A stretch of 64,000 nucleotides of DNA from assembly GCF_035084215.1 (NCBI RefSeq), contig NC_090353.1, forward strand, positions 25,296,001 to 25,360,000, given 5' to 3'. Position numbers and translations under genes: made by a program. The number at the start of each line of letters is the position of its first letter. The stretch's first letter is position 1. The notes beneath the pieces are model-generated. The model did no database searches, was not told where the DNA came from, and was given only the letters and a program-made list of their open reading frames with translations. Shown in pieces: positions 13,747 through 46,363 of the stretch. Source of the stretch: Heptranchias perlo (taxonomy: Eukaryota).

Positions 13747-13783
13747 ATGTGGAGCAACATTATCACAATCCTTTTCATGTCTG
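13747..13783 (+). CDS. Selectin-like gene exon 1 (signal peptide)
   Basis: ATG TGG AGC...TCT G|gtatga encodes MWSNIITILFMS-G. Its phase 1 donor fits the lectin exon acceptor, giving the hydrophobic leader MWSNIITILFMSGSPYISES. Confidence 0.7.
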
Positions 13784-14049
13784 GTATGATAACTTATTAC
13801 ATGTCTTTATTTTTGCAACTAAGTAATTACAAAGATGTAGACATAGATTTTAGAGATGCAGTTGTAAAACAAATGCATATATTATAACCAATCTTACTAA
13901 TCTGAATTTAACATCTGTATAAAAGTATCATAGCTTGCTCAGTCTTTATGATTACAATAGTTCTCAAAGAATTCCAGCCTATTCATTAGGAATCTTAGTC
14001 AAAGATAAATTTTATTCATGGTTGTGTTTTTTCTTTCTCATGTGTTTAG

Positions 14050-14415
14050 GTTCTCCATATATTTCCGAAAGTGTAGTCTACAGGTTACAGAGAACTGAAC
14101 TATCCTTCCAATATTGTCATGAATATTGTGTAAGCTATTTTGATGGACTAGCTGAAGTCTACAATGAAAAACAGCAGCGGTATTTATCATTAATTGCAGA
14201 TGGCAAAAATGTCTGGATTGGAGTGTTAAAATGTAGGCAAAACTGGTGCTATACTGGCTCAGGTAGAATGGTGTCCTACACCAACTGGGCAAAGGGGGAA
14301 CCCAACAACCACTTCTCCTTCATTATTGGAGAAGAAAATTGTGTTTTGATGCTCAGTAGCCGTGAATGGAATGATGAAAATTGTTCTGACCAAAACTATT
14401 TTGTGTGCCAACAAT
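14050..14415 (+). CDS. Selectin-like gene exon 2, C-type lectin domain
   Basis: tttag|GT...CAA T|gtaagt, 366 bp, phase 1-1. Contains VWIG, YTNWAKGEPNN, ENCV, WNDENC and FVC, the canonical CTLD motifs. Confidence 0.93.
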
Positions 14416-14659
14416 GTAAGTACTAGTCTCTCATATCTCTCTATATTCGTAAAGCAGACGCTATGATATCTACAAGGATCTACTAGGGGATCCACGATCT
14501 GATGTGTCATCAGATTTCTTTATTTAGTAACATTGTTAAGATTTCCCACCCATTCACTATAAATGGGCTTCAGTTATTCCTATTGCTGTGTACCAGGAAA
14601 ATGTGTTTCTAGCAGGAATAGGGCTGTTTTTCTTTTTGGAGGATTCGATCGGGTTCCTG

Positions 14660-14780
14660 GTGACGAAGGAGGAAAGCTCCGAAAGCTTGTGATTTAAAAT
14701 AAAACTGTTGGACTATAACCTGGTGTTGTGCAAGTCCTTACATTTGTCCACCCCAGTCCATCACCGGCATCTCCACATCA
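14660..14780 (+). mobile_element. Penelope-like element terminal fragment with a degenerate hammerhead-like core
   Basis: TGACGAAGGAGGAAAGCTCCGAAAGCTTGTG...AATAAAACTGTTGGACTATAACCTGGTGTTG. The same family occurs on - at 58241-58296. Confidence 0.6.
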
Positions 14781-14789
14781 AAATAATTA

Positions 14790-15477: not shown

Positions 15478-16312
15478 TTAGGGCCATTGCTCATCACTGT
15501 CTTTATCAATGATTTGGATGAAGGCATCGGGGGTACAGTCCTTATGTTTGCTGATTACACAAAGGGGTTCATGAGAGTTGGGATTTTGGACAAAATAAAT
15601 AGACTGCAGGCTGATTAAGATACAGTGGGAGAATATGTGGCATACGTCCTTCAATGTCAATAAATGCATTTGGGTTACAGTAATTCCAGCTATATGTACG
15701 GTATGCATGGTTACGCTCAAAAGGCTGCAGAACAGGTGAAGGAGTTGAAGTTCATGAAAATTGGAGGTTCATGACCAGTGCTGCAAGGCTGTAGAGAAAG
15801 TGAACAGGGTGTTAGGATATAGAGTTAGGACTGTTTAATACAAAACTAGAAATATGATACTTACCCTGTACGAGACCTTGGTTTGGCTGCATCTAGAATA
15901 CTGTGCCCAGACTTGGTCCCTTCACATGCTGCAGGATAGCAAGACCCTGGACGGCTACCAGAGTGACACCAAGTCTCAGAGCTTTTACCAGGACAGGCTC
16001 AGGGAACTGGGTCATTTTTCATTGGAGAAATGTAGATTCCAAGGGGATATGATTGAGGTCTTTAAAATAACCTAATTAACTGAGCAGTGGGGATTGATCC
16101 CTATTGATTTCCATGTTCTAACAGCTTTCAAGAATTATATTTGAATTGAAAGTGTTACAATGAGCAAGCACCAAGCTACCAATATGAACATAAGAAGGGA
16201 CTAAATTCTGTTCAGGTGAATTGGTTATTTGAGCTTGATGTTGCAAAGGCTGCATCTTATCTGGATGGGACAGGCTGGATGGATCACTTCTTGTCCTACA
16301 TTTTCTTATGTT
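15478..16312 (+). mobile_element. Degraded CR1 LINE (RT C-terminal part and 3' tail), interrupted by an inverted duplication
   Basis: LGPLL..FINDLD, FAD and LYETLVWLHLEYCAQTWS...RLRELGHFSLEKCRFQGDMIEVFK motifs; tail TTTTCTTATGTTC near 16301. Confidence 0.85.
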
Positions 16313-16427
16313 CATATTGGTAGCTTGGTGCTTGCTCATTGTAACACTTTCAATTCAAATATAATTCTTGAAAGCTGTTAGAACATGGAAATCAATAGGG
16401 ATCAATCCCCACTGCTCAGTTAATTAG
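16072..16427. repeat. Perfect inverted repeat with 125-bp arms (16072-16196 / 16303-16427) and a 106-bp spacer
   Basis: The arms read as exact reverse complements (CTAATTAACTGAGCAG...CATAAGAA / TTCTTATG...CTGCTCAGTTAATTAG). Confidence 0.95.
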
Positions 16428-16974
16428 ATTGTGTAAAATTCAATATCTGGTATCGATGCACAATACTGGATTTCCAACTATCATTTCATTGCCCAGAATC
16501 AGAATAAATTCACACTATTGCAATTGGAATTCAGTGCGGGGCATTATCAACTAATGGACTTTTTATCCTACAAAGCTTTTAAAACTTAAAATGAGTTTCC
16601 ATGAAATAAATAATATTGACATTTGATGGAGGATGGGCTATGGGAATTCTTTCACTTACAGGAAAGGCCATTTTAACTTACTTTGTATGTGTGTTGAAAG
16701 GTGTACAAGATAAATTTTTGGTGAAGTTTTTCAAGTTTTAATGTGGCTATATAATGTAGTAAAAGTCTTGTCTATGCACATACTTCCTGTAAATGCATTC
16801 ATTTCCTGTTGCACTTTTTGTGTCACTCTTTTTCTGTCACAGTCATACTATTGCTTTCATGCTACTTCTGTCAAACTTGAATTTTTCTATTCAGTCCTCC
16901 TGGTTGAACCTCCCAGCTAGGTGGTGCTGTGGGACAAATGTTGCTTTGTACTTACCTGTGATTGGATAGAGAGG

Positions 16975-18525
16975 ATCACATAAACATACGAAAATAACGG
17001 ACAACAAAAGTGTAGCTGGTCTATCAAGCCTGTCCCACACAATTATATTGTAAGTGAGCATCATGACTCCCGACCTACTAGCAGTCATGTAATCTCCTGG
17101 GAGAGGACAAAAAAACCCTCAGCCAATCCAGGAGGGAGAAAAGGATTCTGGGAAATTCCTATCTGACCACAGAAGGCAATCAAAATGAGTTCCAGGAGTC
17201 CACAGTGACCATGAAGCACATCACCCAACATCCCACCTACCTTTTGTACACAGTGATATCAGCCTCAGCCAGGAACTCATCCAACTTTCTTTTGGAAATT
17301 TGCAGCGATTCCACAATCATTGAACAAACAACTTGTTCCAAAGGTCGTCTGCGAAAAGAAAAACCTCCTCACGTCTAACGTGGTTCAAGGTTTATGTAAC
17401 TTACACGCTTGTTCCTGGTTCCCCCTAACCTACCTAATTCAAAGAGTCGATCCATATGGACACATTCTAGTTTCTTTATTATTGTAAATATCTCAATCAA
17501 ATCCCCCCAGAGTGTACACTTTCCAGTGTAAAAGGACCGAGCTCTTTAAGGGCTTTTGAACTAGGTATCAATCTAGTCACTCTCCTTTGAATCTTTTTCC
17601 AAGGCCTCTATATCACCCACCATGTAAGGGTTCACAGTATTCTAGATGAGGCCTAACCAAGGTCTTCTACAAGGACACTACAGTGCTTTTTGTCTTATAT
17701 TGGATTATCTGAGCTACACATCCTAATGCTCTATTTGCTTTTGCTATAGCCTTTTGCCATGGATCGTGAACATTTATGATCATAATAAACATTTATTTAG
17801 AGACTCATGCATTGTAACACGTAGGACTATTTCCTGCTCAAAGACTTTAGTTAGGAACCTCGCATAGTGTGAACGTGCTTGGCAAAATCCCTACCACGTG
17901 CATTACACTACATTTATTTATGTTAAATGCCATCTGGCAGCACATTCCCCCATTGCATCTAGATCTGATTGTAGTAGTTTATTCTCATCCAAGGTCCTAA
18001 CATCCAAGCCTAAATCTCTGTGTTATCCATAAACTAGTGGACAGTTTTCCCAACACCGTCATCAAAATCATTAATATAAATCGTGACATGGTCCCCTCAG
18101 CAGTGATCTCCAGGTCTGTCAGAAGTAAGAAGGCTTAACTGAAACAGCAGTTGTCTACAGTTAGGTTCTGCCAGTGTTACCCCTTCCCTGTTGTTTATTT
18201 CTTCTTTTCTTTCCCTTGTATTTGTTTTGAAGGACCTTTTTCTCCCCATGACCTGTTGCCTGCTGTCTTCACTCCTGGCCACCATTACTCATGCAGGTCT
18301 CTCCTCCCAGTGAACCTGACTCCAGTCACTCCTTCCCACTCACTGCCTGTCATCTTTCCCCAGTCAGATGCCTCGTCCCGATGCTCATCTGCACCCTTGT
18401 GCCACCCACTGCCACCCCTGCCATGTGATCTGTCAGCAATCCTTTCTTCCTGCTGGCTCTATTTTAGTGCTTACCTGCCCACTTCCCACAGCCCAAACCT
18501 CAGGCTTTCTGTCCCCTCTTGGTAA
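16975..18525 (-). mobile_element. Degraded CR1 LINE on the minus strand; the part from ~17330 onward is included in the tandem unit
   Basis: Paralogous copies translate FYKNLVRPHLEYCVPFWSP..DIKALEKIQRRITRWIPSLK on the minus strand. Confidence 0.8.
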
Positions 18526-18982
18526 TCCTCTCTTGCTACTGGTTACGCAGCACTGTTTTTGAAGATATGCGCTAGAATGAGGAGACCCACTGAGGCAAGT
18601 ATCCTCACAAATCTTCCATTTCATTCACTAATGAAGTTGAAATCCTGTTCCCAGCCAAGGTGAAACAGGCATTGTTTTCAAACAAAAATATTGGCCACAT
18701 CCTTCAATACTTTGAGGTGTGATGGAAGAACAATGTGATATGCATTTTGTTACAGCAAAATAATTGAGGATACGTATCCATATTGATTTGTAGAATTGAA
18801 CTGTGCTTTTGATGGATACTAGTTCTCTTAATACCTGGTGGTCATACAGATTACATTACTGTTTAATTATTGCATTCTCAGCAGCCAATCAGACTACATA
18901 ATGTAAATAATTAATCTACAAATGACAGTGAATAAGTCACATTTGAATGATAATAATAATCCTTATGCTACTATCTCTACAG

Positions 18983-19090
18983 TCCAATGCCAAGCAACAA
19001 CCTGCAACAGAAGAGGCACGTGTATTGAATTGGCTAATGGTTTTAGTTGCACCTGTGACCAAGGTTTTTATGGAAATAATTGTGAAAATG
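18983..19090 (+). CDS. Selectin-like gene EGF exon copy 1
   Basis: ctacag|TC...AAT G|gtaaga, 108 bp, phase 1-1. Encodes QCQATTCNRRGTCIELANGFSCTCDQGFYGNNCEN, a 6-Cys selectin-type EGF. Confidence 0.9.
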
Positions 19091-19211
19091 GTAAGAGCTG
19101 GAGAAAAAAAATGGCATAAAATATGTATTCAAGAAGGTAATCCAGACTCACTGCTTCTCTTGAGGACACTGACTCTTGCTGGAGTAGGACTTCATATGTA
19201 CTGGTGGTCCT

Positions 19212-20592
19212 TTGGTACCTACAGGATTCCTTTTTTACCCAGTATGTGAGAAGCCCATCAAGAGATGAATCACTGCTGGATCTACTAATGGGAAATGAAC
19301 CAGAACAGATGAGAGAAGTAAGCATAGGGGAACATCTAGGCAATAGCAATCATAACATGACAAGGTTTAAAATAATGATTGAGAAAGACATAAGTAAGAC
19401 AAAGACCAAAGTAATAGATTGGAAAAAAGCTAATGTTGAGGGGATGAGAATGGAACTAGGTCAGGTAAACTGTAAAGAATTTTTGACAGACAAAGAAATA
19501 GAATAACTGTGGATAATATTCAAAACGGTGATCAATAGAACTCAGGGAGAATATATTCCTCTAAAAAGCAAGAACAAACTAGCCAATAATGAAACACCAC
19601 GGATGAATAAAGAGATAAGGGTAAAATTGAAACTAAAGAAAAAGGCATACTTTAAGTACATAGACAATAAAGGAGAGGATGACAATCTTGTAGTTAATAC
19701 AAAGGAAGAATGCGTCAAAATGCAAAAGCACGTTAATAAATTTGCAAAATGGGCATGTAATTGGCAAATTAATTTCAATATAGATAAGTGTGAGGTGGTG
19801 CATTTTTGTAGGAAGAATAAAGAGGCCACATACTGCTTGGATAATAAGTCTAAACAGGATAGAGGAGCAATGGGATCTAGAGGTACAGATATACAAATCA
19901 CTAAAAGTAGCGATGCAGGTTAATAAGGACATAAAAAAGGCAAATCAAGCACTAGGGATCATTTCTAGAGGGACAGAATTGAAAAGCAAAGAAATTACGT
20001 TAAACTTGTATAGAACATTGGTTAGAACATACTTGGAGTATATGTGCACAGTTCTGGTCTCCATAATATAGAAAGGATGTAAAGGCATTGGCGGGAGTGC
20101 AAAAAAGATTCACAAGAATGATACCAGAAATGAGAGGAAGTACTTATCGGGAAAGGCTGAACAGGCTGGGGCTCTTTTCTCTAGAAAAGAGATGGCTGAG
20201 GGGTGACCTGATAGAGCTCTTTAAGACAATGATAGGGTTTTGATAGAGTAGACGTAGAGAAAATGTTTCCACTTGTGGGGGAGTCCAAAACTAGAAGTCA
20301 CAAATATAAAATAGTCACTAATAAATTCAACAGGGAATTCAGGAGAAACTTCTTTACCCAAAGAGTGGTAAGAATGCGGAACGCATTACCACAAGGAGTA
20401 GTTGGGGCAAATAGCATAGATGCATGTAAAGGGAAGCTAGATAAGCACATGAGGGAGAAAGGAATGGAAGGGTATCCTGAAAGGGTTAGATGAGGTCGGG
20501 GGGGAGGAGGCTCATGTTGAGCATAAACACCGGCAAAGACCAGTTGGGCTGTGCCTGTTTCTGTGCGGTAGTTGTGATGTAACTCGATGTAA
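19212..20592 (+). mobile_element. Internally deleted CR1 LINE at the unit junction (also ~22506-23875, ~25789-27169, ~29083-30462)
   Basis: LQDSFFTQYVRSPSRDESLLDLLMGNE...HLGNSNHN (end of the endonuclease) is joined, after a large RT deletion, to WACNWQINFNIDKCEVVHF and RRNFFTQRVV. Ends in a GATGTAAC-repeat tail. Confidence 0.9.
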
Positions 20593-22276
20593 CTTGTACC
20601 AAAGGTCCTCTGCGAAAAGAAATACCTCCTCACATCTAACTAGTTCAATGCTTATGTAACTTAAACGCATATCCCTGGTTCGCCCTAACCTATCTAATTC
20701 AAAGAGTTGATCCACATGGACACAGTCTAGTTTCTATATTATTGTTAATATCTCAATCAAATCCCCCCAAAGTGTACACTTTCCAGAGTAAAAGGACCGA
20801 GCTCTCTAAACCTACCATGATAACTCATGGCTTTTAAACTAGGTATCCATCTTGTGATCCTCCTTTGAATCTTTTCCAGGGCCTTTATATCACCCACCGT
20901 GTCAGGGGACCAAAATGGGACACAGTATTCTAGATGAGGCCTAACCAAGTTCTTGTAGAAGGACACTGTAGTGCTTTTTTTCTTGTATTGGATTATATCA
21001 GCTATACGTCCTAATGCTCTATTTGCTTTTGCTATAACCTTTCACCACTCATCGTGAACATTTATGATCATTATAAACATTTATTTAGAGACTCATGCAT
21101 TATGACACTAGGACTATTTCTTGCTCAAAAGACTTTAGTTAGGAACCCTGCACAGTGTGAACATGCTTGGCAAAACCTCTACCCGTGTGCACTGCACTAC
21201 ATTTATCTATGTCAAATGCCATCTGGCAGATGTGGACCTATTTCCCCATTGCATCTAGATCTGATTGTAGTTGTTTTTTTTCATCCAAGGTCCTAACATC
21301 CAAGCATAAATCTGTGTTATCCATAAACTAATGGACAATTTCCCCAACACCTCCATCGAGATCATTAATATAGATCGTGACATGGTCCCGTCAGCAGTGA
21401 CCTCCAGGTCTGTCACAGGTCAGAAGGCTTAACTGAAACAGCAGTTGCCTACAGTTAGGTTCTGCCAGTGTTACCCCTTCCCTGTTGTTTATTTCTTCTT
21501 TTCTTTCCCTTGTATTTGTTTTGAAGGACCTTTTTTTCCCCATGACCTGTTGCCTGCTGTCTTCACTCCTGGCCACCATTACTCATGCAGGTCTCTCCTC
21601 CCAGTGAACCTGACTCCAGTCACTCCTTCCCACTCACTGCCTGTCATCTTTCCCCAGTCAGATGCCTCGTCCCGATGCTCATCTGCACCCTTGTGCCACC
21701 CACTGCCACCCCTGCCATGTGATCTGTCAGCAATCCTTTCTTCCTGCTGGCTCTATTTTAGTGCTTACCTGCCCACTTCCCACAGCCCAAACCTCAGGCT
21801 TTCTGTCCCCTCTTGGTAATCCTCTCTTGCTACTGGTTACGCAGCACTGTTTTTGAAGATATGCGCTAGAATGAGGAGACCCACTGAGGCAAGTATCCTC
21901 ACAAATCTTCCATTTCATTCACTAATGAAGTTGAAATCCTGTTCCCAGCCAAGGTGAAACAGGCATTGTTTTCAAACAAAAATATTGGCCACATCCTTCA
22001 ATACTTTGAGGTGTGATGGAAGAACAATGTGATATGCATTTTGTTACAGCAAAATAATTGAGGATACGTATCCATATTGATTTGTAGAATTGAACTGTGC
22101 TTTTGATGGATACTAGTTCTCTTAATACCTGGTGGTCATACAGATTACATTACTGTTTAATTATTGCATTCTCAGCAGCCAATCAGACTACATAATGTAA
22201 ATAATTAATCTACAAATGACAGTGAATAAGTCACATTTGAATGATAATAATAATCCTTATGCTACTATCTCTACAG

Positions 22277-22384
22277 TCCAATGCCAAGCAACAACCTGCA
22301 ACAGAAGAGGCACGTGTATTGAATTGGCTAATGGTTTTAGTTGCACCTGTGACCAAGGTTTTTATGGAAATAATTGTGAAAATG
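22277..22384 (+). CDS. EGF exon copy 2
   Basis: Identical 108-bp exon with intact ag/gt sites. Confidence 0.85.
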
Positions 22385-25300
22385 GTAAGAGCTGGAGAAA
22401 AAAAATGGCATAAAATATGTATTCAAGAAGGTAATCCAGACTCACTGCTTCTCTTGAGGACACTGACTCTTGCTGGAGTAGGACTTCATATGTACTGGTG
22501 GTCCTTTGGTACCTACAGGATTCCTTTTTTACCCAGTATGTGAGAAGCCCATCAAGAGATGAATCACTGCTGGATCTACTAATGGGAAATGAACCAGAAC
22601 AGATGAGAGAAGTAAGCATAGGGGAACATCTAGGCAATAGCAATCATAACATGACAAGGTTTAAAATAATGATTGAGAAAGACATAAGTAAGACAAAGAC
22701 CAAAGTAATAGATTGGAAAAAAGCTAATGTTGAGGGGATGAGAATGGAACTAGGTCAGGTAAACTGTAAAGAATTTTTGACAGACAAAGAAATAGAATAA
22801 CTGTGGATAATATTCAAAACGGTGATCAATAGAACTCAGGGAGAATATATTCCTCTAAAAAGCAAGAACAAACTAGCCAATAATGAAACACCACGGATGA
22901 ATAAAGAGATAAGGGTAAAATTGAAACTAAAGAAAAAGGCATACTTTAAATAAAGGAGAGGATGACAATCTTGTAGTTAATACAAAGGAAGAATGCGTCA
23001 AAATGCAAAAGCACGTTAATAAATTTGCAAAATGGGCATGTAATTGGCAAATTAATTTCAATATAGATAAGTGTGAGGTGGTGCATTTTTGTAGGAAGAA
23101 TAAAGAGGCCACATACTGCTTGGATAATAAGTCTAAACAGGATAGAGGAGCAATGGGATCTAGAGGTACAGATATACAAATCACTAAAAGTAGCGATGCA
23201 GGTTAATAAGGACATAAAAAAGGCAAATCAAGCACTAGGGATCATTTCTAGAGGGACAGAATTGAAAAGCAAAGAAATTACGTTAAACTTGTATAGAACA
23301 TTGGTTAGAACATACTTGGAGTATATGTGCACAGTTCTGGTCTCCATAATATAGAAAGGATGTAAAGGCATTGGCGGGAGTGCAAAAAAGATTCACAAGA
23401 ATGATACCAGAAATGAGAGGAAGTACTTATCGGGAAAGGCTGAACAGGCTGGGGCTCTTTTCTCTAGAAAAGAGATGGCTGAGGGGTGACCTGATAGAGC
23501 TCTTTAAGACAATGATAGGGTTTTGATAGAGTAGACGTAGAGAAAATGTTTCCACTTGTGGGGGAGTCCAAAACTAGAAGTCACAAATATAAAATAGTCA
23601 CTAATAAATTCAACAGGGAATTCAGGAGAAACTTCTTTACCCAAAGAGTGGTAAGAATGCGGAACGCATTACCACAAGGAGTAGTTGGGGCAAATAGCAT
23701 AGATGCATGTAAAGGGAAGCTAGATAAGCACATGAGGGAGAAAGGAATGGAAGGGTATCCTGAAAGGGTTAGATGAGGTCGGGGGGGAGGAGGCTCATGT
23801 TGAGCATAAACACCGGCAAAGACCAGTTGGGCTGTGCCTGTTTCTGTGCGGTAGTTGTGATGTAACTCGATGTAACTTGTACCAAAGGTCCTCTGCGAAA
23901 AGAAATACCTCCTCACATCTAACTAGTTCAATGCTTATGTAACTTAAACGCATATCCCTGGTTCGCCCTAACCTATCTAATTCAAAGAGTTGATCCACAT
24001 GGACACAGTCTAGTTTCTTTATTATTGTTAATATCTCAATCAAATCCCCCCAAAGTGTACACTTTCCAGAGTAAAAGGACCGAGCTCTCTAAACCTACCA
24101 TGATAACTCATGGCTTTTAAACTAGGTATCCATCTTGTGATCCTCCTTTGAATCTTTTCCAGGGCCTTTATATCACCCACCGTGTCAGGGGACCAAAATG
24201 GGACACAGTATTCTAGATGAGGCCTAACCAAGTTCTTGTAGAAGGACACTGTAGTGCTTTTTTTCTTGTATTGGATTATATCAGCTATACGTCCTAATGC
24301 TCTATTTGCTTTTGCTATAACCTTTCACCACTCATCGTGAACATTTATGATCATTATAAACATTTATTTAGAGACTCATGCATTATGACACTAGGACTAT
24401 TTCTTGCTCAAAAGACTTTAGTTAGGAACCCTGCACAGTGTGAACATGCTTGGCAAAACCTCTACCCGTGTGCACTGCACTACATTTATCTATGTCAAAT
24501 GCCATCTGGCAGATGTGGACCTATTTCCCCATTGCATCTAGATCTGATTGTAGTTGTTTTTTTTCATCCAAGGTCCTAACATCCAAGCATAAATCTGTGT
24601 TATCCATAAACTAATGGACAATTTCCCCAACACCTCCATCGAGATCATTAATATAGATCGTGACATGGTCCCGTCAGCAGTGACCTCCAGGTCTGTCACA
24701 GGTCAGAAGGCTTAACTGAAACAGCAGTTGCCTACAGTTAGGTTCTGCCAGTGTTACCCCTTCCCTGTTGTTTATTTCTTCTTTTCTTTCCCTTGTATTT
24801 GTTTTGAAGGACCTTTTTTTCCCCATGACCTGTTGCCTGCTGTCTTCACTCCTGGCCACCATTACTCATGCAGGTCTCTCCTCCCAGTGAACCTGACTCC
24901 AGTCACTCCTTCCCACTCACTGCCTGTCATCTTTCCCCAGTCAGATGCCTCGTCCCGATGCTCATCTGCACCCTTGTGCCACCCACTGCCACCCCTGCCA
25001 TGTGATCTGTCAGCAATCCTTTCTTCCTGCTGGCTCTATTTTAGTGCTTACCTGCCCACTTCCCACAGCCCAAACCTCAGGCTTTCTGTCCCCTCTTGGT
25101 AATCCTCTCTTGCTACTGGTTACGCAGCACTGTTTTTGAAGATATGCGCTAGAATGAGGAGACCCACTGAGGCAAGTATCCTCACAAATCTTCCATTTCA
25201 TTCACTAATGAAGTTGAAATCCTGTTCCCAGCCAAGGTGAAACAGGCATTGTTTTCAAACAAAAATATTGGCCACATCCTTCAATACTTTGAGGTGTGAT

Positions 25301-25559
25301 GGAAGAACAATGTGATATGCATTTTGTTACAGCAAAATAATTGAGGATACGTATCCATATTGATTTGTAGAATTGAACTGTGCTTTTGATGGATACTAGT
25401 TCTCTTAATACCTGGTGGTCATACAGATTACATTACTGTTTAATTATTGCATTCTCAGCAGCCAATCAGACTACATAATGTAAATAATTAATCTACAAAT
25501 GACAGTGAATAAGTCACATTTGAATGATAATAATAATCCTTATGCTACTATCTCTACAG

Positions 25560-25667
25560 TCCAATGCCAAGCAACAACCTGCAACAGAAGAGGCACGTGT
25601 ATTGAATTGGCTAATGGTTTTAGTTGCACCTGTGACCAAGGTTTTTATGGAAATAATTGTGAAAATG
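25560..25667 (+). CDS. EGF exon copy 3
   Basis: Identical 108-bp exon with intact ag/gt sites. Confidence 0.85.
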
Positions 25668-28600
25668 GTAAGAGCTGGAGAAAAAAAATGGCATAAAATA
25701 TGTATTCAAGAAGGTAATCCAGACTCACTGCTTCTCTTGAGGACACTGACTCTTGCTGGAGTAGGACTTCATATGTACTGGTGGTCCTTTGGTACCTACA
25801 GGATTCCTTTTTTACCCAGTATGTGAGAAGCCCATCAAGAGATGAATCACTGCTGGATCTACTAATGGGAAATGAACCAGAACAGATGAGAGAAGTAAGC
25901 ATAGGGGAACATCTAGGCAATAGCAATCATAACATGACAAGGTTTAAAATAATGATTGAGAAAGACATAAGTAAGACAAAGACCAAAGTAATAGATTGGA
26001 AAAAAGCTAATGTTGAGGGGATGAGAATGGAACTAGGTCAGGTAAACTGTAAAGAATTTTTGACAGACAAAGAAATAGAATAACTGTGGATAATATTCAA
26101 AACGGTGATCAATAGAACTCAGGGAGAATATATTCCTCTAAAAAGCAAGAACAAACTAGCCAATAATGAAACACCACGGATGAATAAAGAGATAAGGGTA
26201 AAATTGAAACTAAAGAAAAAGGCATACTTTAAGTACATAGACAATAAAGGAGAGGATGACAATCTTGTAGTTAATACAAAGGAAGAATGCGTCAAAATGC
26301 AAAAGCACGTTAATAAATTTGCAAAATGGGCATGTAATTGGCAAATTAATTTCAATATAGATAAGTGTGAGGTGGTGCATTTTTGTAGGAAGAATAAAGA
26401 GGCCACATACTGCTTGGATAATAAGTCTAAACAGGATAGAGGAGCAATGGGATCTAGAGGTACAGATATACAAATCACTAAAAGTAGCGATGCAGGTTAA
26501 TAAGGACATAAAAAAGGCAAATCAAGCACTAGGGATCATTTCTAGAGGGACAGAATTGAAAAGCAAAGAAATTACGTTAAACTTGTATAGAACATTGGTT
26601 AGAACATACTTGGAGTATATGTGCACAGTTCTGGTCTCCATAATATAGAAAGGATGTAAAGGCATTGGCGGGAGTGCAAAAAAGATTCACAAGAATGATA
26701 CCAGAAATGAGAGGAAGTACTTATCGGGAAAGGCTGAACAGGCTGGGGCTCTTTTCTCTAGAAAAGAGATGGCTGAGGGGTGACCTGATAGAGCTCTTTA
26801 AGACAATGATAGGGTTTTGATAGAGTAGACGTAGAGAAAATGTTTCCACTTGTGGGGGAGTCCAAAACTAGAAGTCACAAATATAAAATAGTCACTAATA
26901 AATTCAACAGGGAATTCAGGAGAAACTTCTTTACCCAAAGAGTGGTAAGAATGCGGAACGCATTACCACAAGGAGTAGTTGGGGCAAATAGCATAGATGC
27001 ATGTAAAGGGAAGCTAGATAAGCACATGAGGGAGAAAGGAATGGAAGGGTATCCTGAAAGGGTTAGATGAGGTCGGGGGGGAGGAGGCTCATGTTGAGCA
27101 TAAACACCGGCAAAGACCAGTTGGGCTGTGCCTGTTTCTGTGCGGTAGTTGTGATGTAACTCGATGTAACTTGTACCAAAGGTCCTCTGCGAAAAGAAAT
27201 ACCTCCTCACATCTAACTAGTTCAATGCTTATGTAACTTAAACGCATATCCCTGGTTCGCCCTAACCTATCTAATTCAAAGAGTTGATCCACATGGACAC
27301 AGTCTAGTTTCTTTATTATTGTTAATATCTCAATCAAATCCCCCCAAAGTGTACACTTTCCAGAGTAAAAGGACCGAGCTCTCTAAACCTACCATGATAA
27401 CTCATGGCTTTTAAACTAGGTATCCATCTTGTGATCCTCCTTTGAATCTTTTCCAGGGCCTTTATATCACCCACCGTGTCAGGGGACCAAAATGGGACAC
27501 AGTATTCTAGATGAGGCCTAACCAAGTTCTTGTAGAAGGACACTGTAGTGCTTTTTTTCTTGTATTGGATTATATCAGCTATACGTCCTAATGCTCTATT
27601 TGCTTTTGCTATAACCTTTCACCACTCATCGTGAACATTTATGATCATTATAAACATTTATTTAGAGACTCATGCATTATGACACTAGGACTATTTCTTG
27701 CTCAAAAGACTTTAGTTAGGAACCCTGCACAGTGTGAACATGCTTGGCAAAACCTCTACCCGTGTGCACTGCACTACATTTATCTATGTCAAATGCCATC
27801 TGGCAGATGTGGACCTATTTCCCCATTGCATCTAGATCTGATTGTAGTTGTTTTTTTTCATCCAAGGTCCTAACATCCAAGCATAAATCTGTGTTATCCA
27901 TAAACTAATGGACAATTTCCCCAACACCTCCATCGAGATCATTAATATAGATCGTGACATGGTCCCGTCAGCAGTGACCTCCAGGTCTGTCACAGGTCAG
28001 AAGGCTTAACTGAAACAGCAGTTGCCTACAGTTAGGTTCTGCCAGTGTTACCCCTTCCCTGTTGTTTATTTCTTCTTTTCTTTCCCTTGTATTTGTTTTG
28101 AAGGACCTTTTTTTCCCCATGACCTGTTGCCTGCTGTCTTCACTCCTGGCCACCATTACTCATGCAGGTCTCTCCTCCCAGTGAACCTGACTCCAGTCAC
28201 TCCTTCCCACTCACTGCCTGTCATCTTTCCCCAGTCAGATGCCTCGTCCCGATGCTCATCTGCACCCTTGTGCCACCCACTGCCACCCCTGCCATGTGAT
28301 CTGTCAGCAATCCTTTCTTCCTGCTGGCTCTATTTTAGTGCTTACCTGCCCACTTCCCACAGCCCAAACCTCAGGCTTTCTGTCCCCTCTTGGTAATCCT
28401 CTCTTGCTACTGGTTACGCAGCACTGTTTTTGAAGATATGCGCTAGAATGAGGAGACCCACTGAGGCAAGTATCCTCACAAATCTTCCATTTCATTCACT
28501 AATGAAGTTGAAATCCTGTTCCCAGCCAAGGTGAAACAGGCATTGTTTTCAAACAAAAATATTGGCCACATCCTTCAATACTTTGAGGTGTGATGGAAGA

Positions 28601-28853
28601 ACAATGTGATATGCATTTTGTTACAGCAAAATAATTGAGGATACGTATCCATATTGATTTGTAGAATTGAACTGTGCTTTTGATGGATACTAGTTCTCTT
28701 AATACCTGGTGGTCATACAGATTACATTACTGTTTAATTATTGCATTCTCAGCAGCCAATCAGACTACATAATGTAAATAATTAATCTACAAATGACAGT
28801 GAATAAGTCACATTTGAATGATAATAATAATCCTTATGCTACTATCTCTACAG

Positions 28854-28961
28854 TCCAATGCCAAGCAACAACCTGCAACAGAAGAGGCACGTGTATTGAA
28901 TTGGCTAATGGTTTTAGTTGCACCTGTGACCAAGGTTTTTATGGAAATAATTGTGAAAATG
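28854..28961 (+). CDS. EGF exon copy 4
   Basis: Identical 108-bp exon with intact ag/gt sites. Confidence 0.85.
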
Positions 28962-31900
28962 GTAAGAGCTGGAGAAAAAAAATGGCATAAAATATGTATT
29001 CAAGAAGGTAATCCAGACTCACTGCTTCTCTTGAGGACACTGACTCTTGCTGGAGTAGGACTTCATATGTACTGGTGGTCCTTTGGTACCTACAGGATTC
29101 CTTTTTTACCCAGTATGTGAGAAGCCCATCAAGAGATGAATCACTGCTGGATCTACTAATGGGAAATGAACCAGAACAGATGAGAGAAGTAAGCATAGGG
29201 GAACATCTAGGCAATAGCAATCATAACATGACAAGGTTTAAAATAATGATTGAGAAAGACATAAGTAAGACAAAGACCAAAGTAATAGATTGGAAAAAAG
29301 CTAATGTTGAGGGGATGAGAATGGAACTAGGTCAGGTAAACTGTAAAGAATTTTTGACAGACAAAGAAATAGAATAACTGTGGATAATATTCAAAACGGT
29401 GATCAATAGAACTCAGGGAGAATATATTCCTCTAAAAAGCAAGAACAAACTAGCCAATAATGAAACACCACGGATGAATAAAGAGATAAGGGTAAAATTG
29501 AAACTAAAGAAAAAGGCATACTTTAAGTACATAGACAATAAAGGAGAGGATGACAATCTTGTAGTTAATACAAAGGAAGAATGCGTCAAAATGCAAAAGC
29601 ACGTTAATAAATTTGCAAAATGGGCATGTAATTGGCAAATTAATTTCAATATAGATAAGTGTGAGGTGGTGCATTTTTGTAGGAAGAATAAAGAGGCCAC
29701 ATACTGCTTGGATAATAAGTCTAAACAGGATAGAGGAGCAATGGGATCTAGAGGTACAGATATACAAATCACTAAAAGTAGCGATGCAGGTTAATAAGGA
29801 CATAAAAAAGGCAAATCAAGCACTAGGGATCATTTCTAGAGGGACAGAATTGAAAAGCAAAGAAATTACGTTAAACTTGTATAGAACATTGGTTAGAACA
29901 TACTTGGAGTATTGTGCACAGTTCTGGTCTCCATAATATGGAAAGGATGTAAAGGCATTGGAGGGAGTGCAAAAAAGATTCACAAGAATGATACCAGAAA
30001 TGAGAGGAAGTACTTATCGGGAAAGGCTGAACAGGCTGGGGCTCTTTTCTCTAGAAAAGAGATGGCTGAGGGGTGACCTGATAGAGCTCTTTAAGACAAT
30101 GATAGGGTTTTGATAGAGTAGACGTAGAGAAAATGTTTCCACTTGTGGGGGAGTCCAAAACTAGAAGTCACAAATATAAAATAGTCACTAATAAATTCAA
30201 CAGGGAATTCAGGAGAAACTTCTTTACCCAAAGAGTGGTAAGAATGCGGAACGCATTACCACAAGGAGTAGTTGGGGCAAATAGCATAGATGCATGTAAA
30301 GGGAAGCTAGATAAGCACATGAGGGAGAAAGGAATGGAAGGGTATCCTGAAAGGGTTAGATGAGGTCGGGGGGGAGGAGGCTCATGTTGAGCATAAACAC
30401 CGGCAAAGACCAGTTGGGCTGTGCCTGTTTCTGTGCGGTAGTTGTGATGTAACTCGATGTAACTTGTACCAAAGGTCCTCTGCGAAAAGAAATACCTCCT
30501 CACATCTAACTAGTTCAATGCTTATGTAACTTAAACGCATATCCCTGGTTCGCCCTAACCTATCTAATTCAAAGAGTTGATCCACATGGACACAGTCTAG
30601 TTTCTATATTATTGTTAATATCTCAATCAAATCCCCCCAAAGTGTACACTTTCCAGAGTAAAAGGACCGAGCTCTCTAAACCTACCATGATAACTCATGG
30701 CTTTTAAACTAGGTATCCATCTTGTGATCCTCCTTTGAATCTTTTCCAGGGCCTTTATATCACCCACCGTGTCAGGGGACCAAAATGGGACACAGTATTC
30801 TAGATGAGGCCTAACCAAGTTCTTGTAGAAGGACACTGTAGTGCTTTTTTTCTTGTATTGGATTATATCAGCTATACGTCCTAATGCTCTATTTGCTTTT
30901 GCTATAACCTTTCACCACTCATCGTGAACATTTATGATCATTATAAACATTTATTTAGAGACTCATGCATTATGACACTAGGACTATTTCTTGCTCAAAA
31001 GACTTTAGTTAGGAACCCTGCACAGTGTGAACATGCTTGGCAAAACCTCTACCCGTGTGCACTGCACTACATTTATCTATGTCAAATGCCATCTGGCAGA
31101 TGTGGACCTATTTCCCCATTGCATCTAGATCTGATTGTAGTTGTTTTTTTTCATCCAAGGTCCTAACATCCAAGCATAAATCTGTGTTATCCATAAACTA
31201 ATGGACAATTTCCCCAACACCTCCATCGAGATCATTAATATAGATCGTGACATGGTCCCGTCAGCAGTGACCTCCAGGTCTGTCACAGGTCAGAAGGCTT
31301 AACTGAAGCAGTAGTTGTCTACAGTTAAATTCGGCCAGTGTTACCCCTTCCCTGCTTTTTATTTCTTCTTTTCTTTCCCTGGTACTTTTTTTGAAGGCCT
31401 GTTGCCTGCTGCCTTCACTCCTGGCCACTATTACTCCTGTGGGTCTTGCCTTCCAGTTAACCTGACTCCAGTCACTCCTTCCCACTCACTGCCTGTTGCC
31501 TCTCCCCAGTCAGGTGCCTCATCTGGATGCTCACCTGCACCCTTGTGCCACCCACTGCCACCCCTGCCATGTGATCTGTCAGCAGTTCTTTCTTCCAGCT
31601 GGCTCTATTTTAGTGCTTACCTGCCCACTTCCCACAGCCCAAACCTCAGGTTTTCTGTCCCCTCTTGGTAATCCTCTCTTGCTACTGGTTACGCAGCACT
31701 GTGTTTGAAGATATGAGCTGGAATGAGGAGCCCATTGAGGCAAGTATCCTCACAAATCTTCCATTTCATTCACTAATGAAGTTGAAATCCTGTTCCCAGC
31801 CAAGGTGAAACAGGCATTGTTTTGAAACAAAAATATTGGCCACATCCTTCAATACTTTGAGGTGTGATGGAAGAACAATGTGATATGCATTTTATCACAG

Positions 31901-32127
31901 CAAAATAATTGAGGATACGTATCCATATTAATTTGTAGAATTGAACTGTGCTTTTGTTGGATACTAGTTCTCTTAATACCAGGTGGTCATACAGATTACA
32001 TTACTGTTTAATTAATGCATTCTCAGCAGCCAATCAGACTACATAATGTAAATAATTAATCTACAAATGACAGCGAATAAGTCACATTTGAATGATAATA
32101 TTAATGCTTGTGCTAATATCTCTACAG

Positions 32128-32235
32128 TCCAATGCCAAGCAACAACCTGCAACAGAAGAGGCACATGTATTGAATTGGCTAATGGTTTTAGTTGCACCTG
32201 TGACCAAGGTTTTTATGGAAATAATTGTGAAAATG
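32128..32235 (+). CDS. EGF exon copy 5
   Basis: 108-bp exon encoding the same peptide, with one synonymous change (ACG>ACA) and intact splice sites. Confidence 0.9.
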
Positions 32236-32924
32236 GTAAGAGCTGGAGAAAAAAATGGCATAAAATATGTATTCAAGAAGGTAATCCAGTCTCACTGCTT
32301 CTTTTGAGAACATGTTTCAAACTGTTGCTCTGGCTGAGATCAGTTAACTCAGCACAGCCCATGAATGAAATGGGATCTTTTGGCCTTGTTAGCTCTGCAT
32401 CACACCGGGCAGAGTCTTTGATAATTGAGACAGTGCATGTTTTTTAAGTGAATGTAGATCAAAAATCCAAAATTATTTCCCATTTGCAACCTTTGCTTTC
32501 ATTCCTGCTTAAGTCAATCATTTTAACTTTTATATATTTGCCCAGACTTACTGATTACAGCATATAGGTTTTCAAAGTCCCTAAAGGTCCAGAACAGGTC
32601 TCAGAGAGTCCACATAGTCCTCAGGTTTCTGCCCATATGTCATCAGGATTTTGCATTTATTGACTTACTTGTACATTATTTCATTTGCTGTATAATAATA
32701 AATATTTTCTGCAACAATAGCGCCATTTTCCTTTAGGTAGCTAGCACTGTCTTTCAGAAGTTAGGACAGGGTCTCCTGGTACGTCTCAATACTTTTAGTG
32801 GTGGCCCCACACAGAAAAGTTTGAAAACCATTTGTTTACAGCACAAATTACAACGTGTGGCATGACCTTTTGGTCTCTGTATTCATAACACAAAAAACCC
32901 TGCATTAATCTCTTTGTTTTACAG

Positions 32925-33110
32925 TTACGTCATGCCCAGTCATTACAAAACCAGACCATAGCGCAGTTAAATGTGAAGGAACACACGGCAAGAACCATTT
33001 CCAATCTGTGTGCACATTTATTTGTGATCAAGGATTTATTCTGAATGGGAATAATTCATCAACATGCCGAGCGTCAGGCTCCTGGACGACCTACAATACA
33101 ATCTGCCATG
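32925..33110 (+). CDS. Selectin-like gene sushi/CCP exon
   Basis: ttttacag|TT...CAT G|gtcagt, 186 bp, phase 1-1. Encodes VTSCPVITKPDHSAVKCEGTHGKNHFQSVCTFICDQGFILNGNNSSTCRASGSWTTYNTICH, the 6-Cys CCP pattern and exon size typical of selectins. Not in the ORF track. Confidence 0.92.
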
Positions 33111-39301: not shown

Positions 39302-39406
39302 GCACTGTTAATTACCTCAAATTAATCCTAATTACTGTTACCATGGGAGCAGTAGCTCTTTTGGTCCTATCAGTGATCTGTTGGTGGAAGAGGAGAAATG
39401 GTCAAG
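39302..39406 (+). CDS. Selectin-like gene transmembrane exon
   Basis: tttctag|GC...CAA G|gtaata, 105 bp, phase 1-1. Encodes GTVNYLKLILITVTMGAVALLVLSVICWWKRRNGQ, a hydrophobic helix followed by a basic stop-transfer. Confidence 0.88.
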
Positions 39407-39636
39407 GTAATATGTTGTGTTGATACAGTAACCATCATTATAATACTTAGTATTTCACTTTTCATTAAGAAAGAAGAAAGAACTTGCATTTATATAGCAC
39501 CTTTCACAACCTCAGGATGTCCCAAAGCATTTTACAGCCAATGAAGTACTTTTAACATATTGTTACTGTTGTAATGTAGGAAACACCAATTTGCACATGA
39601 ATCTACAGGTATTCTATACAGTTAAACCTAATTATT

Positions 39637-42079: not shown

Positions 42080-42104
42080 AGCAAAACAATGCCTGCAATG
42101 ACCT
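42080..42104 (+). CDS. Selectin-like gene cytoplasmic microexon (25 bp)
   Basis: Strong polypyrimidine tract, cttag|A...CCT|gtgagt. Phase 1-2 exactly bridges the TM exon to the last exon; encodes EQNNACNDL. Confidence 0.7.
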
Positions 42105-42565
42105 GTGAGTATTGAAACCATCAATAGCCTTTGGTACTTCAAAATTGTATGCAGTTCCAGAAACTGCTATTTTCTATGTGTCAGTAACATTTTGTAGGAT
42201 AATGATTGTTTCTTTCATGGTACTGTAGGATAATTTCAGTCAAAAGCATAACAGGTGCGTGACTGAGACTGAAGGAACTCATAGAAATCTCTGCCTTTGC
42301 TGTACACTGCCCTAAAAGTACTGATATAAATCTAACTAAAAAGTTGGGAATTGTATTTAGTATTTGATTATCTTGGTTAAATAATAGCGAGTCCTTCCTA
42401 AAAATATTCTGCAAGGATATTTACTACAGTAGGGATACATTTTCAAAGATACCACTCTTGGGATTCCGTACCAGGAGTGGAGTCTATGAAAGTTCTTCTC
42501 ATATGGTTGTAGAATGTTTGAGCTACCTTTTTCAGCCACTCATAGTCAATGGGAAGAAAATCTAT

Positions 42566-43763
42566 TGCCCAGAAATTGCTGGAAAAGTAACGGCGAGTTC
42601 ACGCCACCCACCATTATTAGTGCGTAAAAAAACAGCAATTTGTGGTGAGGAAGAGATAAGTGATGAGTTGCAAATCGCCACAACTTGCTGGACGATTTGC
42701 GCTGCTCTGCAGTTAACCTCGCAAAAACGGACAAGGACCATGTTAATGACGTGATTTATGGTCCTGACATGACACTCAACTTTGGAAACCCAGAAAGGGA
42801 ACAATGAAGCTATGGAGTCTCACTCAGGCAGCTAGTGAATTGTTTCTAGAGGTTTTTTAAACCTTTTATCTGTCTTGGCATTATTGTTGTGCCAGTCTTG
42901 TCATCCACACTCCTGTTAGTGTCGGAAGGCAATAATTTTCAGGATCCAAAACTGTTTTGACATTCAGAAATGCAAATTAGATAGATCTCTTTCAGAAATT
43001 AGCATTTTGGGATACAGTATATAAGTAATTTGAGACACGATGTGGTAAGCATAGCACACTTGAGCAAAAAGGTGACTTTGGACCTATGATTCCTAAAGCT
43101 CTCCACTACTGGGGTTTTCCTTGTATAATTTTTGGGTCTGTTGTGGACTAATCGATAGAGATTGATTGCTATGATTAATCAACAACTCCATTATCATTGT
43201 ATCATGCAACTACCAGGATGGTAGAAGGTGAACTAGATGGACTTTGATCTAGCAATTCCTATGTTCCTATGAAAGCAGTTCTACTGTTCCTGATCATGTT
43301 GGATGGGGCCGCTGGTTCTATACTTCATAGGTCAAGAATGTTTGTACATTTCACATACCTACCCTGCCATTCACTCATTAACTTCTCAAGGACCAATACA
43401 ACAATTTCAAACACAATGGTGTTAAAATGTCCTCTTCTGCTTGTTCTTTTAAGTTTTTTCCTCCTTTTCCTTTCTGTCTCTTTTTTCTGCCTCAATCAAT
43501 CCACTCTCCTTCTTTCCCTTTCTTTATTTCTTTTTCTGTCTCTAAATTGATACTAATTTACCCTATTTCCTTCTCCATTAAGGAGATAGACCACTGGCAT
43601 GATGCTTATGAGGTCCCAGATGCATCGTTAACATCACTGCGCCATTATCAATTCGCATTTCCAGTAATTTCTGGTGCAAATGTAGTGTGATCTGAAGGGT
43701 GAGGTAAAAAGTATAATTCACGATGCTAGCCGTGAGATATGCCGCTCGAGCATTTCTAGGCCA
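42566..43763. mobile_element. Possible non-autonomous TIR (Harbinger-type MITE-like) element with a nested CR1 tail fragment
   Basis: The ends GCCCAGAAATTGCT / AGCATTTCTAGGCC are imperfect inverted repeats; the TSD is ambiguous. Confidence 0.35.
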
Positions 43764-46218
43764 TTGTTATTAAAACCAAGTTGTTTTGTAATTCAAGCAG
43801 ATTTGTGGCTAAGTGGCTCTGTACACTGACAGAAGTTTAGTTTCATCACTCACTTTGATTCAATGCAGATTAAACCTGTCAGATGTTAGTCTTGAAAAAT
43901 GTGGACACTATAGCCTAGAAATTACTGTCAGTGAACAGAGGCATCAACTCATTAATTTTAAGCAGGAGAGAAAAGAATCTAAATGAGTGCATATGATAAC
44001 ACTAACAGTAACTTTCAGCCAATAGTGCACACGACCTTAAATAAGAACTCAACCTAATTTAAAAAGGAAATTAAGATTTCAGTAGTTGCTGCCATATGAA
44101 AATCTCTGACAAGTGCTTAGAACCAGTACTGCTGTGTTGTGGAGACATCCAGCCAGTCTCCTTGGTTCATTCATTAATGTGGGGACACCGCTGCATTCCC
44201 TTCCTGCCACGGAGTCTGGATCATGAAATGTGGCATATTAATTTCCACAAAATATTGGACTCTCAAAAAACTAATAAGCCAGCGAGTTTTACAGCATATT
44301 TACAAATCCCCAGTGATTTAATCCTATTCAAGGAGAAGCAATGGTGTCCTCTTGGTAATGAAAAACTACAAGTGTTACAAGTGAATTTCTCAACAGCATG
44401 ACAGCCATCGTAAAAGTGACTGGTTTCTATGCAATTAAATTATTGAAGACTGCAATTTTGGATAGGGTACATTTAACACTGTATGTACAAAGGTTTCTTA
44501 TTTTCACTCCCATATCTATAAAAATAGTTCATAATAAATATTCATATGTACAAATTTAAAATATAAAATAAGAATATATTGTTGGTTTATTCTGAGAATA
44601 TTGAGATCTTCCTCTGTATTTCCTTTATTGCACTTTATAATATTAATAAATTTAAAATAAATGATAATATTAATAATATTAAATAATATAGGATCAAATA
44701 ATTCTAGCAGATTAATAAATACTGCAAACATCACTGAAAACACCATTTTGATAGCTATGATAGAATGTAGGACTTCCATAGTTCAACATTATTTTATAAG
44801 CCTGGAACCCTACCCCATGCTTTTGTAGGTGCTGCCTGACCCCTGGTACCTTGGCCAAATGGCCATTTTTCATTTATAAACCTGAACAGTGAATATTAGC
44901 AGACTATTCAACTGTGAAGCCATCAGAACCGACTCTTTGCCTGATGTACTTTCCATTAAGGGATCAACGGACAGTGATCAGGAGCAGAAACCCAAGCTGA
45001 TTTTTCTCCTCTCTGGTCCCAGGCCTTGAGAAATGTTTATCACCACTACCACTGCCGAGGCTGGGAACAGTTAACTCAGTACAGACTGGGGATCAGACCT
45101 GAGGCTTTCCTGAGAAAGTTCCATTCTGAGTTGTAAATATACAAACTGATACAAAAAGCAAAACTTCTTATTTCATAGAACTTGTCACTGTTGAACTATT
45201 ATCCTATATGCTGTAAGGTGGAAATTGAGTATTTTATGAACAACAGCTGCTTTTATATTGTAGTAAGACTCATGCTAGTGCCAGCTCCTGACTTATTAGG
45301 ATTTGCTAAGACCAGCAGCTGGTAAGACCCATTTTTAACAGATCTTCCTTCCCATTGATGTTAGTGAATCCCAGAGTTTACTTTCGGGCTCCACCCAATT
45401 GCATGAGATCCACATGCTGCGAGTCGATACCACCAGCACGGGTTTTGCACAGCTAGCAACAACAAATTGAATTTATATACCACCATTAATGTAATAATAA
45501 GCCCCAACGCACATCAGACAGTAGAAAGTGGCAACCGAGCAGGAGCAGCAGAGTTAGGAGAGATGTAAAGTAGGTGATTTAGGTTTTCAGGAGGTTTGTA
45601 AAGGTGTATAGAGAAGTAGCAAGGCGAGGACGTTTAGGAAGCGAGTTCCAGAGAATCAAACTAAGACGACTGAAAGTTCTGGCACCAGAGAGCATTGTGG
45701 GATGGGGAAATACCCAAAAGGCCAGAGTCGGAGGCCTACTGGGGCAAGGAGAGGCAGCTAAACGGTTGGTAGTAGGATGCTGAGCAGATTGAAAGAGCAA
45801 GAGATGGGTCTCGTAAAGAAAATGTCTGCTGAAGCCGGAGAAAGATAAAACAGGAGAAGTTTCTGTGATATGGGATCAGGCTGGGGTGAAGGTTAAGCTG
45901 TGTGGGGGTGGGGGGGAAGGCGGGGTGTAGGAATGGAGGGGAGAAGTCCTGATCTTTGAAACTAACATGTCCATATGCTTCTCCCACGTGAGATTGGAGG
46001 GGTTGGGTAGGGGTAAAGAGTTTGAGGAGTTAATTGGTCATTGAAAAAGGGAGTCCTGGATTGTCTTTCTCCTCAAGGATGATATTGGATTATTAGGACG
46101 ATTTTTCAAGTGACTGAAATGTCTGCATTAGATCTGATGATATTCTTAACCTGGATTTTTTGTGCACTTATTTTCTCAAAGAAAGAAAATTAATCAAACT
46201 TCACAATTTTTTTTCTAG

Positions 46219-46363
46219 CCCAATGCAACAGAACACATCAGCATATGAAAGTCATGGCGTATATATACTATCAACTCCACGCCAGAACATTGAGACCCCA
46301 CAAGATCAAATATATGCCAACAGCCTCAGCACACATCAGGTCATATATGAGAACTTAGAGTAG
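46219..46363 (+). CDS. Selectin-like gene last coding exon (tyrosine-motif tail)
   Basis: ttttttttctag|C CCA ATG...GAG TAG encodes PMQQNTSAYESHGVYILSTPRQNIETPQDQIYANSLSTHQVIYENLE*; AATAAA at 46562. Confidence 0.75.

Follow-up and report, generated by a model that had tools for sequence, protein, structure and literature searches.

A candidate sister lineage of the selectins in cartilaginous fishes and the coelacanth, seen from a receptor gene of Heptranchias perlo

The selectins (SELE, SELP and SELL; group IV of the proteins with the C-type lectin-like domain, or CTLD) are regarded, in the accessible parts of PMC514892 and PMC11232095, as a three-member family without a close vertebrate relative of the same architecture. 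A stretch of 64,000 nucleotides from the genome of Heptranchias perlo (G000:C32:25296001-25360000; hereafter the window, meaning this whole stretch) raises the question of whether such a relative exists and what it might do. An initial annotation of the window had reconstructed a gene for a receptor with a lectin domain, five EGF domains, a single sushi (CCP) domain, a transmembrane segment and a tyrosine-bearing tail. From sequence comparisons we consider it on balance probable that this gene encodes a receptor sister to the E/P/L-selectins that would act as a Ca2+-dependent glycan sensor signalling through Grb2-type adaptors, and not as a rolling receptor for sialyl Lewis x (sLex).

A six-frame scan of the window found a single C-type lectin frame on the forward strand, along with five motifs of EGF type and one of sushi type. 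The 11 exons of the gene (Table 1), with AG and GT at each intron, join into 1404 nt and 467 amino acids whose sole stop is the terminal one, which reproduces exactly the splice sites, compatible phases and lengths given before. Pfam recognized Lectin_C (E = 2e-15), EGF (1e-7) and Sushi (1e-9) in the model, and the protein runs from a signal peptide through the CTLD, five EGFs and one six-cysteine sushi to the transmembrane segment and a 64-residue tail, with all modules on phase 1-1 exons. Orthologue proteins matched every exon in tblastn, including the signal, transmembrane, 25-nt and tail exons; the matches to the 37-nt and 25-nt exons were weak (E 0.4-0.5), yet lay at the predicted positions. 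Probing with the second sushi of an orthologue revealed no second sushi exon in the window, and the predicted layout with its single sushi was thereby upheld. An AATAAA stands at 46562, 3' of the last coding exon. Run X5, which we guess to be RNA although it is not recorded as such, holds a 509-nt contig that equals 32924-33110 without differences and departs from the genome at both ends of the sushi exon, a pattern that splicing would produce; by length, the 294 nt on its 3' side would suit the transmembrane, 25-nt and last exons (275 nt). One X5 contig extends 17 nt into intron 2. These data suggest that the gene encodes an intact type I membrane receptor.

To place the receptor, we compared it with the true selectins of the same species, which form a cluster on another chromosome (G000:C9:57.17-57.47 Mb); one of the cluster's CTLDs hits human L-, E- and P-selectin with E values of 1e-38 to 1e-45. 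A search of the genome (3.25 Gb) with the exons of the window gene led back to this cluster, which received all non-self matches of the sushi exon (21 of 21), six of the nine CTLD matches and the best EGF match; among the scored candidates the CTLD and sushi exons had no close second genomic copy, and the five EGF copies were found. In a CTLD tree of 36 rows, built without the near-duplicate C9 and C42 loci, the long row L117, one selectin and two invertebrate proteins, the eight family rows, coelacanth included, formed one clade (99/97) outside a clade of the twelve selectins (100/98) that excluded the family; an earlier tree of 26 rows agreed. In a sushi tree of 63 rows, for which 26 of 30 loci served as outgroup, the CCPs of the family and of the selectins (37 rows) stood together against the 26 other CCPs (98/84), and the family CCPs were monophyletic (97/92). 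The EGF tree, with 35 columns, resolves little. The top nine Foldseek hits of a predicted CTLD-EGF model were all selectins; this model (predicted local distance difference test score, pLDDT, 64.5) served only for the fold search, and the AlphaFold prediction for the coelacanth protein had low quality (pLDDT 49) and was left unused. Atlas searches returned only selectin, group XIV and lectican clusters, with the selectin clusters ranked first.

The receptor shares with the selectins the order CTLD, EGF, six-cysteine CCP and transmembrane segment, one exon per domain, a two-exon tail, the cysteine spacing of the EGF and the EPN/E/WND calcium site. It differs in its separate clade and chromosome, in a family range of one to five EGFs against exactly one, and in details of the lectin domain and tail described below. 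By these comparisons the window gene is no E-, P- or L-selectin; its lineage is separate, likely an ancient selectin paralogue and sister to the E/P/L-selectins. They bear out the earlier proposal of a selectin-related lineage, which in the CTLD phylogeny lies outside the selectin clade. The split between this lineage and the selectins appears to predate that between sharks and the coelacanth, which is more than 400 million years old.

The C9 selectin cluster (L068-L084) itself has six CTLD exons in both orientations. Three of these (L088, L093 and L094) have EPT and WNN instead of EPN and WND, so that their sugar site may be altered. At G000:C42:6.76-6.88 Mb (L095-L116) lie at least 16 tandem CTLD exons with YP, HP or NP replacing EPN, many of them near-identical and spaced about 7.5 kb apart, which may make up a multi-CTLD receptor with kinship to the 'MMR-like' proteins of fish.

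What the receptor may bind was assessed by comparing residues between the eight family CTLDs and the twelve selectins, in E-selectin numbering taken from the alignment. The calcium and primary sugar site is kept across the family (EPNN in 8/8, Glu88 in 8/8, WND in 7/8), and Glu80, Asn82, Glu88, Asn105 and Asp106 are all present in the window CTLD. Tyr94 is an sLex contact in selectins. Tyr48, Glu92 and Arg97 touch the sialic acid and galactose of sLex, according to the accessible part of PMC11232095. In the family, neither Tyr48 nor Tyr94 occurs in any of the eight CTLDs and Glu92 occurs in four, the window CTLD not among them; it has Asn, Leu and Leu at the Tyr48, Glu92 and Tyr94 positions. 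The loop that bears Arg97 is 8 residues long in the family versus 13 in all twelve selectins. An extra cysteine pair, a putative disulfide that the CTLD-EGF model cannot show, lies between WIG and EPN in 8/8 family CTLDs and 0/12 selectins, and aromatic residues follow EPN in sharks, rays and the coelacanth. By the rules of C-type lectins, EPN favours mannose, fucose or GlcNAc, and we infer that the window CTLD would bind glycans of these types rather than sLex; the ligand might also include a hydrophobic partner, a glycolipid for instance.

The cytoplasmic tail sets the family further apart. The predicted tail of about 60 residues with four tyrosines counts 64 residues and four tyrosines, all of which have aligned counterparts in Carcharodon, Cetorhinus and Scyliorhinus (all four are found in 4/5 shark tails); a shorter model from Stegostoma has three of them, and the rays and one skate have two. 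Across the family, tails have 47-64 residues and 2-4 aligned tyrosines versus 0-2 tyrosines in the twelve true selectin C-termini; L-selectin, with its short tail and one tyrosine, may signal through adaptors, according to part of PMC5820395. A YxN motif occurs in eight of nine family tails, the ninth being a short model. In the portion of PMC4263166 available to us, YxN is the conserved Grb2-binding core of costimulatory motifs like the immunoglobulin tail tyrosine (ITT), found in mIgG, CD28 and DAP10; these are Ig-family receptors with one motif each, and the likeness is one of a short motif, not homology. The conservation of YxN, the aligned tyrosines and the ITT precedent therefore favour Grb2-type costimulation over inhibition or plain adhesion, and the conserved multi-tyrosine tail suggests signalling rather than pure rolling.

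To understand whether five EGFs and one sushi are the design of the lineage, as the initial annotation had proposed in contrasting it with the single EGF and repeated CCPs of selectins, we collected relatives by word-limited protein searches and cluster look-ups, all of them automatic predictions named selectin-, jagged- or notch-like. Relatives from eight further records of sharks, rays and skates, and from the coelacanth, back the architecture of the model. Their EGF number ranges from 1 to 5 and their sushi number from 1 to 2: Stegostoma has 4 EGFs, 1-2 CCPs, a transmembrane segment and a tail; Chiloscyllium 3 EGFs and 2 CCPs; Hypanus, Hemitrygon and Mobula 3 EGFs; Amblyraja and Leucoraja 1 EGF and 1 CCP; and Latimeria 1 EGF and 2 CCPs, the layout of L-selectin, whereas the models from Scyliorhinus, Carcharodon and Cetorhinus are partial. 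Since the coelacanth and the skates have one EGF, the simplest ancestor of the family was likely L-selectin-shaped (CTLD-EGF-2xCCP-TM, TM being the transmembrane segment), and we infer that EGFs were added, and the second sushi was lost, at a later stage. The reversed layout is unsupported as a defining design.

Rather, the five EGFs of Heptranchias perlo are near-identical because their exons lie in a tandem array of units of about 3.29 kb that includes the introns and LINE-like (long interspersed nuclear element) repeat fragments in the spacers. The first three exon-plus-intron units are 0-1 substitution and one 11-bp indel apart, and the first and last units share 89% identity. A middle unit equals the last copy as far as about 18140, with one informative site as the exception, and beyond that point the first copy; the middle units are thus hybrids of the two. 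This is the pattern that unequal crossing-over between two older copies, with recent amplification after it, would be expected to leave. By these results the five-EGF form is a very recent expansion and not an old design. The first and last units also differ by 10-13% upstream and by 2.5-3.5% near the exon (18530-19130 versus 31660-32310), a hint of gene conversion. In rays and the zebra shark (P0005, P0008, P0009 and P0007), EGF2 and EGF3 are 94-100% identical within each protein and EGF1 differs, which suggests repeated duplication or homogenisation of EGF exons in several lineages.

Public annotation has split the gene. XP_067824728 ('E-selectin-like') and XP_067824816 ('L-selectin-like') divide it in two, with four EGFs in total, the transmembrane exon skipped and names taken from the best match only; at this locus, model P0001 has the signal, CTLD and 3 EGFs and then an intronic end, and model P0013 has an EGF, the sushi and the tail but no transmembrane segment. 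Several public models (P0013, P0003 versus P0007, P0011 and P0019-P0021) leave out the transmembrane exon, or the second sushi, or an EGF, or else the tail with the tyrosines, and may be real splice isoforms. The word-limited protein searches returned no family member from chimaera, ray-finned fish, lungfish, tetrapods or lamprey, which is weak evidence of absence. In the literature, few subscription papers being covered, we found no description of the lineage; the accessible part of the Fugu CTLD survey PMC514892 has three selectins and a single-domain 'NLSLH' and nothing of the window gene's architecture, and that of PMC11788884 makes no mention of selectins. The claim that the system is undescribed stands as far as papers go, but databases already carry its members as automatic models called 'E-/L-/P-selectin-like' or 'jagged-like'. 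This is a real, selectin-related receptor lineage of cartilaginous fishes and the coelacanth, automatically annotated and otherwise, it appears, undescribed.

We propose the following mechanism. The EPN/E/WND site would bind Ca2+ together with a sugar of the mannose, fucose or GlcNAc type, with the aromatic loop beside it and the extra disulfide giving a specificity other than sLex. The EGF stalk would set the reach from the membrane, lengthening or shortening by unequal crossing-over between exon-bearing repeat units. Clustering by ligand would lead to phosphorylation of the tyrosines in their acidic-hydrophobic-Y-x-N context, and the phosphorylated motifs would recruit Grb2, GRAP or GADS and deliver a costimulatory signal, as for ITT-like motifs. 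The event that separated the lineage from the selectins may have been a whole-genome duplication.

The genomic neighbourhood bears on this last step. Upstream of the gene are a KLF-type zinc-finger gene, the farther of the two, with an exon in L035, and a BTB-BACK-PHR gene, which by gene order we take to be BTBD2-like and whose 3' end lies on the same strand at 134-280 and 1960-2120 (+) of the window (L028, L030 and L031). Downstream (L048-L067, C32:25.46-25.66 Mb) follow a RhoGAP gene, presumably ARHGAP45-like, a SHIPPO-repeat gene, Rpb5 and a Strawberry notch homologue, a neighbourhood that to our eye resembles human 19p13.3. The best paralogue of the RhoGAP exon (62%) is on C9, and NFI genes are on C4, C9, C32 and C40; by these placements C32 and C9 share paralogues, which lie 15-38 Mb away from the C9 selectin cluster. 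A whole-genome-duplication origin is plausible. The part of PMC13450315 available to us describes 135 ohnologs kept only in sharks, and one supplementary file of its ohnolog database has no match to the window gene; bioRxiv 10.1101/2025.09.16.676548, likewise seen in part, gives general paralogon background. In a fuller scenario, which we put forward tentatively and rate below even chances, whole-genome duplication would have given jawed vertebrates two selectin lineages, the E/P/L rolling cluster and a Grb2-coupled glycan sensor with an accordion-like EGF array. Equally tentative is its sequel, in which the sensor was kept in sharks, rays and the coelacanth, was lost or goes unrecognised in most bony vertebrates, and preserves a pre-sLex form of selectin.

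The tail could alternatively belong to an inhibitory or mixed glycan receptor like the Siglecs or CD22, recruiting SHP-1/2 or SHIP to damp leukocyte activation on self glycans. The last motif of the window protein, VIYENL, fits the consensus of the ITIM (immunoreceptor tyrosine-based inhibitory motif), (I/L/V/S)xYxx(I/L/V), four shark tails end in Y-x-N-L, and the inhibitory receptor TIGIT also carries an ITT-like motif, according to a source available in part. We nevertheless hold this reading unlikely: the hydrophobic residue at -2 is unconserved, the ITIM consensus occurs in one of nine family tails, that of the window species, and the sialic-acid contacts are not retained in family CTLDs. 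The initial annotation had suggested a signalling, possibly inhibitory receptor; the conserved tyrosines speak for signalling, whereas 'inhibitory' is unsupported because the ITIM is seen in 1/9 tails while YxN is seen in 8/9. A divergent adhesion or tethering receptor, which under flow would hold a ligand other than sLex that bears fucose or mannose, with an EGF stalk in place of the sushi stalk to give length and a tail mainly for sorting or endocytosis, would agree with the order of domains, the sizes of exons and the geometry of CTLD and EGF known from selectins and with the repeated stalk lengthening in sharks and rays, but the long tails with aligned tyrosines and the missing sLex contacts make it, in our estimate, quite improbable.

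Several results weigh against the placement and mechanism that we favour. The CTLD tree is a three-way split between the family, the selectins and fish multi-CTLD lectins, and forcing the family and the selectins into one CTLD clade gave a p value of 0.49 in the approximately unbiased (AU) test, which neither rejects nor shows the clade. Scored with a profile of the family, two 'MMR-like' CTLDs of fish reach 71 and 69 bits versus 52-64 for the selectins, so the lectin domain alone is no proof of sisterhood. The bootstrap of the sushi tree is unsettled, with selectin CCPs non-monophyletic, and six cysteines also occur in 1/26 outgroup CCPs. The aromatic loop after EPN is missing in skates, and YxN is also present in 3/12 true selectin tails, two of these identical. 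Genome probes placed PBX on C9, C34 and C40, not C32, and so gave no C32-C9 link, and a probe for an ATP1B (F5-type) paralogon found neither C9 nor C32 to carry a Na/K-ATPase beta gene. A mosaic gene that joined a selectin-derived EGF-sushi stalk to a lectin exon of another group, or that reached this site by segmental rather than whole-genome duplication, would suit the three-way CTLD placement, the slightly higher scores of the fish multi-CTLD lectins, the phase 1-1 exons of every module and the C32-C9 link from just two of four family probes. We think such an origin, which would be compatible with every mechanism above, rather unlikely, as the order of domains, the CTLD on a single exon, the spacing in the EGF and the two exons of the tail are all as in selectins and a joint CTLD clade is unrejected by the AU test. 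Finally, the five-EGF form might be an assembly artefact or unexpressed, with fewer copies in truth or with the public two-gene annotation correct. The array units are near-identical, the public models give 3 EGFs and a separate 3' gene, and no EGF-EGF exon junction was found among the X5 contig joints listed, a table dominated by intronic repeats. In DNA run X3, which is possibly the assembly's own sample and in which contig depth is a crude measure, five unique contigs have depths of 42-68 (weighted mean 55) and three repeated-unit contigs have 189, 271 and 329, that is 3.4-6.0 times the unique depth (mean 4.4) versus 3.8-4.4 assembly copies. False duplication by the assembler is disfavoured, since depth tracks copy number, and the hybrid pattern, the 11-bp indel and the substitution among units, together with orthologues that are single genes with 3-4 EGFs, make this reading very improbable.

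Two other groups resemble the receptor in part. Group XIV CTLD proteins (thrombomodulin, CD93, CD248 and CLEC14A) are likewise membrane proteins of type I that combine a CTLD with several EGFs; their sushi-like domain precedes the EGFs, they have a mucin stalk, and most of their genes lack introns, whereas the window gene has the order CTLD-EGFs-sushi and no mucin stalk. Their Atlas look-alikes rank below the selectins (0.85-0.90 versus 0.95-0.96), and a CTLD that we label group-XIV-like (L117) stayed outside the family in the 26-row tree. The carbohydrate-recognition domains of collectins and mannose-binding proteins (MBP, SP-D) give the best PDB sequence matches (E 5e-11 versus 1e-9 for E-selectin) and share the EPN-WND site and the short loop, but these are soluble trimers of another clade, and the window protein has no collagen region.

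Table 1. Exons of the receptor gene and the EGF array, in window positions.
Feature	Position	Strand	Remarks
First coding exon, signal peptide start	13747..13783	+	37 nt; aligns to orthologue N-termini; identical in public model P0001
C-type lectin exon	14050..14415	+	366 nt; retains EPNN, WND and the Glu88 equivalent; additional Cys pair follows WIG; aromatic loop beyond EPN; Tyr48, Tyr94 and Arg97 loop absent
Tandem array of EGF-exon units	17330..32312	+	about 3.29 kb each, introns included; spacing 3294, 3283, 3294 and 3274 bp
EGF exon 1	18983..19090	+	108 nt, phase 1-1; selectin-type Cys spacing 4-5-8-1-8
EGF exon 2	22277..22384	+	identical to EGF exon 1
EGF exon 3	25560..25667	+	identical to EGF exon 1
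EGF exon 4	28854..28961	+	identical to EGF exon 1
EGF exon 5	32128..32235	+	differs from exons 1-4 by one silent base
Sushi/CCP exon, six Cys	32925..33110	+	186 nt; orthologous to CCP1 of the shark/ray/coelacanth family
Transmembrane exon	39302..39406	+	105 nt; supported by orthologue alignment
Cytoplasmic exon	42080..42104	+	25 nt; orthologue alignment; present in public model P0013
Last coding exon	46219..46363	+	four tyrosines (AYES, VYIL, IYAN, IYENL) and stop

The window also holds two inverted, 82%-identical copies (8614-9663 and 36571-37636) of an element with a Myb/SANT-like open reading frame, presumably Harbinger-like, one of which sits inside the intron between the CCP and transmembrane exons. 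Near-perfect inverted repeats lie at 57860-58648 (arms of 322 bp) and 16069-16430 (arms of about 125 bp).

Every domain of the receptor is a familiar one, and its function is read from motifs. Its EGF array is a clear case of domain-number change through unequal crossing-over. The gene, broken up and misnamed by annotation pipelines, gives the shark immune system a further candidate for a signalling lectin. As a likely sister lineage, it would provide an outgroup for asking which changes created sLex binding and catch bonds in the selectins.

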